Virus record (IMG/VR): IMGVR_UViG_2880366365_000011
Length of the DNA: 64,000 nucleotides
Strand: one strand, 5' to 3'
Source of the DNA: a virus
Taxonomy: Duplodnaviria; Heunggongvirae; Uroviricota; Caudoviricetes
Of this stretch, positions 6,001-9,000 are shown piece by piece. How positions within the stretch are numbered: the stretch's first letter is position 1; each line of letters starts with the position of its first letter. Made by a program: the position numbers.

Positions 6001-9000
6001 CCAGAGCGGACAGATTTTCAGCCTGCTTAGCCCTGGCTTCATTGGCCCATTTCAGATCCTGCGCTGCATTAATTTTCTGGTGCATCCACTCATAAAGTTC
6101 ATCATCGGTATAGTCTGGCGCGATGATGACGGGTTCTCGTTTCTGCATGTCGGCTCCTTGTGGTTAGCGTTGCCTGCTTTTAACCACGTCAGGCGAGGTG
6201 GTATCCTCTGAGGGGTCTGTTACTCGAGAGGAAATTGGTTATGAATACAATCAAGTTTTCTTGCCCAGAATGTGGTGGCGAAGTCTTTGACACATCCTTT
6301 AAGCCGCAGGGCTCTGACAGTTTCGCGGGAGCCATCTGCAAAAATTGTGGTCACCTTGTAACTGAAGATGAGTCCTCGCAGTTCGATGACGAAATCGTTG
6401 ACAATATCTTCGGTGCACTCACCAGAGACTTTCTGAAGTAAAGGCGCATACCGCTTAGTTACCGCTCTGATAACTCTTACCTGTCCTGCAATGGCGCTGA
6501 TGTCAATATAAAGCGCCATTGCTGCTTCTTTGCCGATCCCGGGATGCCTTCCATTCTGATGTTTGACTTCGCCCACTGAGAAACCCTCTGTTTCCCCTTA
6601 ACGCCGGGGTAGCGGAACAAAAAACTGCTGCATAGTTATTAAAGTTGAACCCTGCCGTCATGTTCATACGCCTCGGGCTGGCTACTTAACCCCTGACCAC
6701 TGCCGGGTAACTCGAAGTATTTCCCTGCGTTCTGTGGGGCGGGGTGGGTTGGTATTTTTAGTTTAATAAACATTAAACTTAAGTCAAGTAAAAACTAAAC
6801 CGCGGGACATAACAAACACAACGCTTTTGATAAAGTCGTTGCGGTTGTTATGTTTCTATTGGTAGTGAAAGTTAGGGAAACTGGCGTCTTGCGTGGATCA
6901 CGTTTACTACTTCAACGCTTGATGTTGTTACGCGGTATAGAATTATATAGTTAGGGTGGGCTACAATCTCACGCAAGCCAGGTACTCTGTCGCTTGGTGG
7001 GTATAAATACGGATGTTCGGATAACGGCAGCACACAACCCCTTAATCGCTGCCATAAGCGTTCAGCCGCATCTATGTCGAAACGAGCAATATAACTAGTT
7101 ATATCATCTAGGTCGGTATCTGCGCTTTCAAGCCATAACACGGGTAACATTTTACTGCTTGCTCCGTTCCTTGCGCATCTTAGCAAAGCGTTCTGCCATT
7201 CTGCGCTCAACTTCGTCATGGGGAATTGCTGGGCGCGGATCTGCAAGGCTCGTTGCTACTTTCGCACGCAGCCATTCGTTGTAACTGTTTTCTTGTTCAA
7301 TGGTTTCAAATTCAGAAACCATTGGTGAAAGGGCTCTATTCATGTTTCCTCCGGTTTTATAACTCAGGCGCGGCGGCATTTTTGCGCCGCAATCCATCTC
7401 GCTATGAGATCTTCCATTGATTCTTTTTTCTGCTTTAACTCGCTGATTATCTGGCGTTGCTCATCCTCAGGGAAGGCTGAAAAAATCTGCAATAATTCCA
7501 GTTGATTAGACGTTAACCCTGCATGTGGTGGAGAACCCCCCGGTTGTTCTGCGTATTCCGCATCCAGATACCCTTCCGGCATCCCGTATGTTTGCTCTAT
7601 TCTTCTGGCAGCCTTTTCTCCAAACGAGGCTCTCCCACTCATTAGTTGAGATAGGTAGCTCTTCTCTTTGGGTGGCAGAGTTTTATCTTTAAACCACTCC
7701 TTGAGACGTAAACGGCGAATTTCTTTTTTTTGCATGTGGTAATTATCTTTAGTAATCACTAAACAAGCAAATACTTGACTTAATGGTTTATTAAACACTA
7801 AACTCGCAAAAAAACACTAAACCGAGGAAGGTATGACATTAAAAGAGTTTATTAAATCATTAAGGGTTGGTGATGCTAAGAAATTCGCGGCCAGACTTGG
7901 TGTATCGCCATCTTACTTATCGCAAATGGCGTCTGGACGAACAGCTATATCTCCAACCCGCGCCCTTATGATCGAATCTGCGACGGAAGGCCAAGTAAGT
8001 AGGGCGGAGCTACGACCCCATGATTGGGAGCTTATTTGGCCTGAGTATGCGAGCGGCATTCGTTTGGGGCAAACACATGTAGTTCATGCTGAAGGTGATT
8101 GTAGTGCATGCTTATCTGATGGAGTTGATTCATGAAAATCAAGCATGAACACATCCGCATGGCGATGAATGTCTGGGCGCATCCGGACGGCGAAAAAGTA
8201 CCGGCTGCGAAAATTACCAAAGCGTATTTCGAGCTGGGAATGACGTTCCCGGAACTGTATGACGACAGCCATCCGGAAGCCCTGGCCCGTAATACCCAGA
8301 AAATTTTCCGTTGGCTGGATAAAGACACCCCTGATGCTGTTGAAAAAATGCAGGCTCTGTTACCGGCGATCGAAAAGGCGATGCCGCCTTTGCTGGTGGC
8401 CCGTATGCGCAGCCACAGTTCTGAATATTACCGTGAGATCGTCGAACGGAGGGATCGGCTGGTGAAGGATGTCGATGATTTTGTTGCGTCAGCGGTTGTT
8501 TTGTATGACCAGATGAATCGCGGCGGCCCGGCAGGGAATGCTGTGGTGATGCACTAAAAGCACGGTGTTCGGGGGTTTTATGAGCAGCAAGCTTCATGGT
8601 CTTGTCTGGGAAGGGTGCGCCTTCACCGGCATGATCTTATCCAGGGTGGCGGTTATGGCCCGTCTTGCAGACTACAGCAATGACGAGGGCGTGTCATGGC
8701 CTGCCATTGAAACTATCCGGCGTCAGATCGGTGCAAGAAGTGAATCCACAGTGAAATCGGCTATTGCAGAACTGGCGAAAGAGGGCTGGCTGACGAAGGA
8801 AGAGCGTAAGGTCGGTGGGCGTAATGTAAGCAATATCTATCGGCTTAATGTGGAAAAACTCGAAGCAGCTGCTGCGGCGGCGCGTGAGTCATATAAACCG
8901 AAAAGAAAAATTAGCCCGGCAAAAAATGACCCGTTAACAGTTGACCCGTCAAATATTGCCCCCTCAACGGTTGACCCGTCAAATTTTGATGGATCAACTG

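Follow-up and report, generated by a model that had tools for sequence, protein, structure and literature searches.

Why should a lambdoid prophage carry a toxin–antitoxin pair in the interval from its repressor gene to its leftward early promoter? The question is raised by positions 6872–7343 of a 64,000-nucleotide stretch of Caudoviricetes DNA (IMG/VR record IMGVR_UViG_2880366365_000011; hereafter, the window), for which an initial annotation, made from the sequence alone, proposed a ParDE-like pair downstream of a DicA-like repressor gene. We are close to certain that this locus is paaR2-paaA2-parE2, a three-component type II toxin–antitoxin module that belongs to the immunity region of CP-933P/Sp12, a cryptic lambdoid prophage of Escherichia coli O157:H7. 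Our analysis confirms the observation and supports its interpretation with refinements. The system itself is not new, having been studied in depth before (Hallez et al, 2010; Sterckx et al, 2016; Jurenas et al, 2021, PMC8630535). Toxicity with and without the antitoxin, co-transcription and maintenance are essentially all covered experimentally in published work. Because structural and genetic studies of this placement have been appearing for about 15 years, nothing new was learned from the window itself; the locus serves mainly as a calibration point, in that a reader without tools correctly recognised both the ParE-type pair and how unusually it is placed within a lambdoid immunity region.

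Identity and organisation of the locus

The 3.6-kb segment of the window spanning positions 6000–9600 matched many E. coli O157:H7 chromosomes at 100% identity in a megablast search, including those of Sakai (Sp12) and EDL933. The Sakai counterpart lies within a region recorded as “prophage Sp12, lambda-like phage”, where the three genes correspond to ECs_2279–2281; Sp12 of Sakai and CP-933P of EDL933 are one prophage. Across the whole window, blastn comparison with Sakai followed Sp12 and then the early region of the neighbouring prophage Sp11. The module is unchanged relative to Sakai, and the window strain differs only by IS629 insertions elsewhere. Among 5426 complete E. coli genomes, 632 carried the 472-bp antitoxin–toxin pair, with an identity of at least 99% in 585 of these, EDL933 included. 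Nothing that we found contradicts the identification, and there is no sequence difference from the published proteins.

The genes are arranged in the order regulator–antitoxin–toxin on one strand, with gaps of 20 nt and 1 nt, which is the organisation of three-component modules of the Paa type (paaR-paaA-parE). The initial annotation had described a 63-residue open reading frame (ORF) with a GGAGG ribosome-binding site, followed 1 nt later by a 92-residue ORF ending in IHARRQFP; both descriptions and the coordinates 6872–7343 proved exact. Its statement that both ORFs lie on the repressor strand immediately downstream of the repressor also holds, the gap to the gene at 7735..7364 being 20 nt, as does its placement of the pair between this gene and the leftward early promoter, since PL933P (6787->6760) lies beyond parE2. 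Searches of the window by tblastn with the three proteins returned this single locus, with neither a second copy nor a paaR1-paaA1-parE1 paralogue. An Rfam scan of the whole window at gathering scores, together with an E-value scan of positions 6400–7900, recovered no relevant structured RNA of a known family, either within the module or beside it. Coordinates of all features are collected in Table 1.

Table 1. Features of the module, its control region and the remainder of the window. Rfam ranges are given in the order DicF (two), hok/sok (two), STnc100 and the three-tRNA cluster.
Feature	Coordinates	Strand	Basis or remark
paaR2, CI-analogue repressor, 123 residues, third module component	7735..7364	minus	PDB identity of residues 1–66
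paaA2, disordered antitoxin, 63 residues	7343..7152	minus	PDB identity, Pfam; ECs_2280 in Sakai
parE2, ParE-family toxin, 92 residues	7150..6872	minus	PDB identity, Pfam; ECs_2281 in Sakai
Strong hairpin between parE2 stop and PL933P	6807..6853	minus	22-nt arms, 82% complementary
PL933P and OL operators, directly beyond the toxin–antitoxin pair	6757..6805	minus	promoter 6787->6760, TTGACT-16-TAAACT (promoter scan)
Divergent control region, 97 bp: PRM933P, PR933P, OR operators (GTTTAGTAA-type inverted repeats)	7736..7832	.	promoter, repeat and half-site scans
PR933P	7775-7804	plus	TTGACT-18-TAAACT (promoter scan)
ydaS, Cro analogue, 100 residues	7833..8135	plus	Pfam YdaS_toxin and HTH_3 above cutoff
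YdaT high-affinity operator OM (TTGATTCATGAAAATCAA), PRE933P-associated	8125-8142	.	sole exact TTGATTN6AATCAA match in the window
ydaT, CII analogue, 141 residues	8132..8557	plus	PF06254 YdaT_toxin; PMC9986795, PMC8630535
Copy-2 CI repressor, helix-turn-helix and Peptidase_S24 (48.5 bits), 212 residues	53403-54041	minus	Pfam
Copy-2 Cro, P22_Cro-type	54085-54375		
IS629 (IS3 family, ALIL frameshift pseudoknot), in Sp12-like exonuclease (recE-like) gene	2500-3822		
IS629 (IS3 family, ALIL frameshift pseudoknot), in Sp11-like replication gene	55315-56629		
DicF small RNA, one per prophage	5536-5587, 51708-51759	minus, minus	Rfam above gathering score
hok/sok, two loci	12433-12607, 60282-60456	plus, plus	Rfam above gathering score
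STnc100	16548-16720	plus	Rfam above gathering score
Three tRNA genes clustered downstream of Q gene	15523-15769	plus	Rfam above gathering score

The ParE2 toxin

The translated parE2 product (MLPVLWLESADTDL...VVNVIHARRQFP, with the C-terminus ...VIHARRQFP) is 100% identical over its 92 residues to the chain deposited as “Plasmid stabilization protein ParE” (PDB 5CW7_B/5CZE; E 7e-60). On the Pfam profile PF05016 (ParE_toxin) it scored 60.9 bits (cutoff 23), with positions 1–89 of the 89 profile positions aligned, which places it in the ParE family of the RelE/ParE superfamily. The ParE/RelE fold follows from identity to the crystallised chain, and the more distant ParE structures 3KXE, 6X0A and 5CEG were also matched, the first two at E values around 1e-5. 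For this same protein pair, neutralisation of ParE2 toxicity by PaaA2 was reported by Hallez et al (2010) and Sterckx et al (2016), as summarised in PMC8630535. According to Jurenas et al, ParE2 is found together with the nucleoid and induces the SOS response (PMC8630535).

The PaaA2 antitoxin

The product of paaA2 (MNRALSPMVSEFETIEQENSYNEWLRAKVATSLADPRPAIPHDEVERRMAERFAKMRKERSKQ) begins with MNRALSPMVSEF and ends with ...RKERSKQ. On the minus strand, the gene is preceded by ...AACCGGAGGAAACATG, in which GGAGG lies 4 nt before the ATG, and it is joined to parE2 through CAGTAAAATG (CAG TAA A ATG), so that 1 nt separates the paaA2 stop from the parE2 start. PaaA2 is 100% identical to the protein of that name with a solved structure (PDB 3ZBE/5CW7; E 5.5e-37) and belongs to the PaaA2 family by its match to PF21217 (70.7 bits, cutoff 27); through NF050103 it also carries the NCBIfam name “RelB family antitoxin”. 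Published work describes PaaA2 as a disordered protein with two helices that wraps around ParE2 and neutralises it through a higher-order complex. It is devoid of a domain for DNA binding, its interaction with ParE2 is cooperative, and ClpAP/ClpXP degrade it (PMC8630535).

A Pfam scan of PaaA2 at E<=0.01 found no ParD or ribbon-helix-helix (RHH) family. Assignment as a ParD antitoxin was rejected, the only Pfam match being to the PaaA2 “stability determinant” family. PaaA2 is not a ParD because it lacks a DNA-binding domain; regulation is delegated to PaaR2, and the system is therefore a three-component one. Of the label “ParDE-like”, the toxin half is thus retained (PF05016, 5CW7_B), whereas the antitoxin half does not apply to a protein devoid of an RHH or other DNA-binding domain.

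The PaaR2 repressor

paaR2 ends 20 nt upstream of paaA2 on the same strand. Two observations identify its product as PaaR2. Residues 1–66 are identical to the N-domain deposited as “Phage repressor protein CI” (PDB 7NKV/8C3K; E 5e-41), the match entering the construct tag beyond this point, and the N-terminus MQKKE is that of the sequenced protein, the mRNA of which is leaderless with transcription starting at the ATG (PMC8630535). PaaR2 was characterised as a functional analogue of lambda CI that forms octamers, lacks the S24 peptidase motif and is not SOS-inducible (PMC8630535). No Pfam family was matched by PaaR2 and no Peptidase_S24 domain was detected in its C-terminal part. For this exact sequence, the literature reports binding of PaaR2 to repeated operators at OR and OL, its repression of both PR933P and PL933P and regulation of its own promoter, which is first activated and then repressed.

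The “DicA-like” label proved to be partly justified. By BLASTP, residues 53–119 can be aligned to K-12 DicA in its C-terminal part, with 29% identity over 70 residues (E 4e-7). The NCBIfam DicA model (NF007257) scored only 28.1 bits against a cutoff of 101 and covered residues 72–119 only. Since the similarity is limited to the C-terminal domain and falls far under the NCBIfam cutoff, membership of full-length PaaR2 in the DicA family was rejected.

Promoters, operators and the genetic switch

The published elements of this region, namely PL933P and PR933P, the OL and OR repeats, the GATAAT -10 element and the YdaT operator, were all located in the window. With PRM and PR diverging among repeated operators, another set of operators near PL and a site for a CII-type activator of PRE, the locus has the organisation of a lambdoid immunity region. 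According to the promoter scan, PL933P and PR933P share the same -35 and -10 hexamers; this identity was also reported by Jurenas et al, along with an approximately 100-fold repression of PL933P by either PaaR2 or YdaS (PMC8630535). On the minus strand, the GATAAT of PRM933P is positioned 6 nt before the paaR2 ATG, a spacing that fits a leaderless transcript. OL and OR have in common the inverted repeats I1/I3 and the direct repeats D1 and D2, among which D1, I1 and I3 touch the segment 7736..7832 and I1, I3 and D2 the segment 6757..6805; the published OR contains four repeats (PMC8630535). When the published half-site GTTTAGTAA was searched with up to two mismatches, 11 of the 149 matches in the window fell within the 173 bp of OL plus OR, compared with approximately 0.4 expected.

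Footprints of PaaR2 and YdaS revealed operators that overlap each other in the 97-bp region between paaR2 and ydaS, which was also mapped by 5' RACE (PMC8630535). YdaS competes with PaaR2 for these operators, resulting in a bistable and heritable switch (PMC8630535). The similarity of YdaS to the P22_Cro profile is weak (16.2 bits, cutoff 30.2). The YdaT operator, defined by footprinting as TTGATTN6AATCAA (PMC9986795), overlies the ydaS stop and the ydaT start. YdaT activates PRE933P, which provides an alternative source of leftward transcription through paaR2-paaA2-parE2 (PMC8630535).

The three genes form an operon transcribed from PRM933P and down-regulated by PaaR2, with PL933P situated beyond parE2 (PMC8630535). 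The promoter scan found no promoter-like site in the 20-nt gap between paaR2 and paaA2. The proposal that toxin–antitoxin expression is coupled to repressor transcription is thus borne out by the operon structure. It does not extend to an expression exclusive to the lysogenic state, because in reporter experiments the toxin–antitoxin genes were transcribed in both states of the switch, with SOS induction undetectable (PMC8630535).

Between the parE2 stop and PL933P, the transcript would fold into a strong hairpin (6807–6853) with a predicted energy of -24 kcal/mol (z = -5.4), and none of 200 shuffled sequences was equally stable. No clean U tract follows the stem, and the sole match in the Rfam scan at this site was a chance, sub-threshold miRNA. 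The hairpin is not mentioned in the published accounts that we consulted. Judged from its predicted stability and location, it probably ends the operon before PL, in a position similar to that of tIMM in lambda.

Downstream of PL933P, a block of 156 nt in the leader of the PL transcript (6591–6746, minus) recurs at 53121–53276 with 96.8% identity between the heteroimmune Sp12-like and Sp11-like prophages, while the upstream operators and downstream genes of the two are unrelated. In copy 2, the Sp11-like prophage, this block precedes a DUF1391/ydfA-like gene that is absent in copy 1, and approximately 28 nt of it are also present just upstream of ydfA in K-12 Qin. The leader was considered as a structured antitermination RNA and rejected, its fold being no stabler than shuffled sequences (z = +1.67); the block has no Rfam match. 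A 68-residue ORF (6235–6441, plus; ECs_2282), which runs against the direction of the PL transcript, encodes a zinc-ribbon-like protein with two CxxC pairs; it corresponds to phrog_4852, and all its Pfam matches are below cutoff. The paper assigns no function to this region (PMC8630535).

Relatives of the module

Phage Evi (LR597642.1) carries the module with the same architecture at 98.4% nucleotide identity. Its parE2 (4173–4451) is intact and encodes a protein of 100% amino acid identity, though it is unannotated in the record, and its PaaA2 features one K->R substitution. A diverged module with the same architecture is present in E. coli bR_120_Kylling (NZ_CP182374.1, 2495–3396), where the ParE protein retains 91% amino acid identity. 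The repressor of this variant has only its C-terminal 46 residues in common with PaaR2 (59% identity), and its N-terminal helix-turn-helix (HTH) domain is unrelated. Such a pattern of similarity points to a mosaic joint that lies within the repressor gene. On the same sequence comparison, the toxin–antitoxin pair seems to be passed on as one unit with the C-terminal domain of the repressor, from one immunity type to another.

Proposed role of the pair and alternative explanations

The paaR2-paaA2-parE2 system is addictive, and a mini-F plasmid that carries the entire region is stabilised no less efficiently than one with ccdAB (PMC8630535). According to Prolic-Kalinsek et al (2023), parE2 and paaA2 take the place that rexB and rexA have in lambda (PMC9986795). 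In the mechanism that we consider, the leftward operon is transcribed as a leaderless mRNA from PRM933P or from the YdaT-activated PRE933P, as has been shown in the literature. Published work also shows that PaaA2 decays upon loss of the locus, and that the freed ParE2 acts on the nucleoid and induces the SOS response. Cells that lack the locus are thereby killed (post-segregational killing), so that the module stabilises plasmids. In the prophage, the pair would fill the slot of lambda rexA/rexB as an addiction cassette and may penalise loss or replacement of the immunity region.

Several points limit this functional reading. The demonstrations of addiction were made on plasmids rather than on the chromosomal prophage. 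In steady-state growth, no ParE2 activity, as reported by SOS induction, was observed in either state of the switch (PMC8630535), so that any part played by the pair in the normal life of the prophage is putative. Furthermore, ParE2 was reported neither to bind GyrA59 nor to inhibit gyrase; the mechanism of ParE proteins as gyrase poisons is therefore not simply transferable to this toxin, and translation inhibition is not supported as its activity. As for the boundary of the operon, we infer the terminator role of the hairpin from the folding z-score alone.

A different explanation holds that PaaA2-ParE2 is primarily a prophage-encoded anti-phage system, acting by abortive infection or superinfection exclusion as a functional equivalent of RexAB, which we regard as unlikely. 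An infecting phage that stops host transcription or triggers proteolysis would, in this somewhat doubtful scenario, cause the release of ParE2 and abort the infection. The location of the pair accords with such a role, since, like rexA/rexB, it is flanked by the repressor gene and PL and shares the transcript of the repressor, as do the lability of PaaA2 via ClpAP/ClpXP, the expression of the toxin–antitoxin genes in both switch states, and retention of the module in the 632 E. coli genomes mentioned above and in one deposited phage genome. However, PADLOC defence models match none of the three proteins, PaaA2 is absent from the top-ranked papers of a full-text search that paired it with abortive infection, superinfection, phage defense or rexB, no experiment bearing on the proposal in either direction was found, and the published interpretation is one of addiction and stabilisation (PMC8630535). 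Beyond addiction, we tentatively entertain, at low probability, that the pair is an abortive-infection or superinfection-exclusion device, or else a guard against replacement of the immunity region through recombination with a heteroimmune phage, with ParE2 acting on a nucleoid target other than GyrA. A small hint for an anti-phage or guard function comes from the diverged variant, in which the toxin–antitoxin pair and the repressor C-terminal domain move together and the DNA-binding domain is swapped.

That the pair is instead a decaying remnant of a defective prophage, without a selected function, is very improbable. CP-933P/Sp12 is indeed cryptic, with an integrase pseudogene in Sakai; the exonuclease gene of the copy in the window carries IS629, and ParE2 activity is undetectable at steady state. 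Yet neither ORF is disrupted, and hundreds of genomes share them with 100% conservation, as illustrated by the 585 records with at least 99% identity, and the proteins work in toxicity, neutralisation and plasmid-stabilisation assays (PMC8630535). Least credible of all is a canonical two-component, autoregulated ParD-ParE module next to an unrelated repressor gene, the literal sense of “ParDE”: the toxin is a bona fide member of the ParE family and the antitoxin–toxin order with a 1-nt spacer is typical, but PaaA2 has neither a ParD/RHH match nor a DNA-binding domain, the 20-nt gap after paaR2 offers no promoter-like site, and published data, which place transcription under the control of PaaR2, YdaS and YdaT, already refute it.

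The second prophage and other features of the window

The immunity region of copy 2 (approximately 52.9–54.8 kb) also encodes a YdaT homologue and, as its first PL gene, a DUF1391/ydfA-like gene. Within the window, tblastn detected no ParE2 or PaaA2 homologue in this region. The view of the initial annotation, that a CI-type repressor is present in copy 2 but such a pair is not, is hence sustained by the HTH and Peptidase_S24 domains of its 212-residue repressor and by the lack of a second copy in the tblastn search. In Sakai, with a sequence 99.98% identical, only a 112-residue product (ECs_2209), translated from an internal start, is annotated for the Sp11-like CI; this is probably a start-site annotation issue. 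Both positions occupied by IS629 in the window are empty in Sakai, where IS629 is instead found at the Sp11/Sp12 junction.

Comparison with known systems

The closest system is paaR2-paaA2-parE2 of EDL933 CP-933P itself. Proteins, DNA, the neighbouring genes ydaS and ydaT, promoters and operators are identical, and the module in the window shows no differences.

Canonical ParD-ParE systems (RK2 parDE, Caulobacter ParDE1, Vibrio cholerae ParDE2) resemble the module in the ParE/RelE fold of the toxin, around which the C-terminal helices of the antitoxin wrap, and in their capacity for addiction and plasmid stabilisation. They differ in that PaaA2 lacks an RHH domain and autoregulation, which is left to a separate regulator, and in that ParE2 did not bind GyrA59 and reportedly does not inhibit gyrase.

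The DicA-DicC region of K-12 Qin is similar in the position of its repressor gene and in the dicB/DicF-type genes downstream of PL. The corresponding traits of the window are DicF at 5536–5587, a dicB homologue, and the resemblance of the PaaR2 C-terminal domain to that of DicA. In contrast, the N-terminal HTH of PaaR2 has no detectable similarity to that of DicA, and in Qin dicA is followed directly by ydfA, with no toxin–antitoxin pair in between.

Lambda cI-rexA-rexB is unlike the module in that there is no sequence relationship, and PaaR2 has no S24 autocleavage domain and is not SOS-inducible. The accessory genes of lambda form the RexAB exclusion system and those of the module a toxin–antitoxin pair; lambda has three operators, whereas OR comprises four repeats here. 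The architecture is nonetheless alike: genes of the Cro and CII types point away from the far side of the repressor gene, which is transcribed leftward from PRM, as a leaderless mRNA, or from PRE; next come two accessory genes that the lysogen expresses, and then OL/PL.

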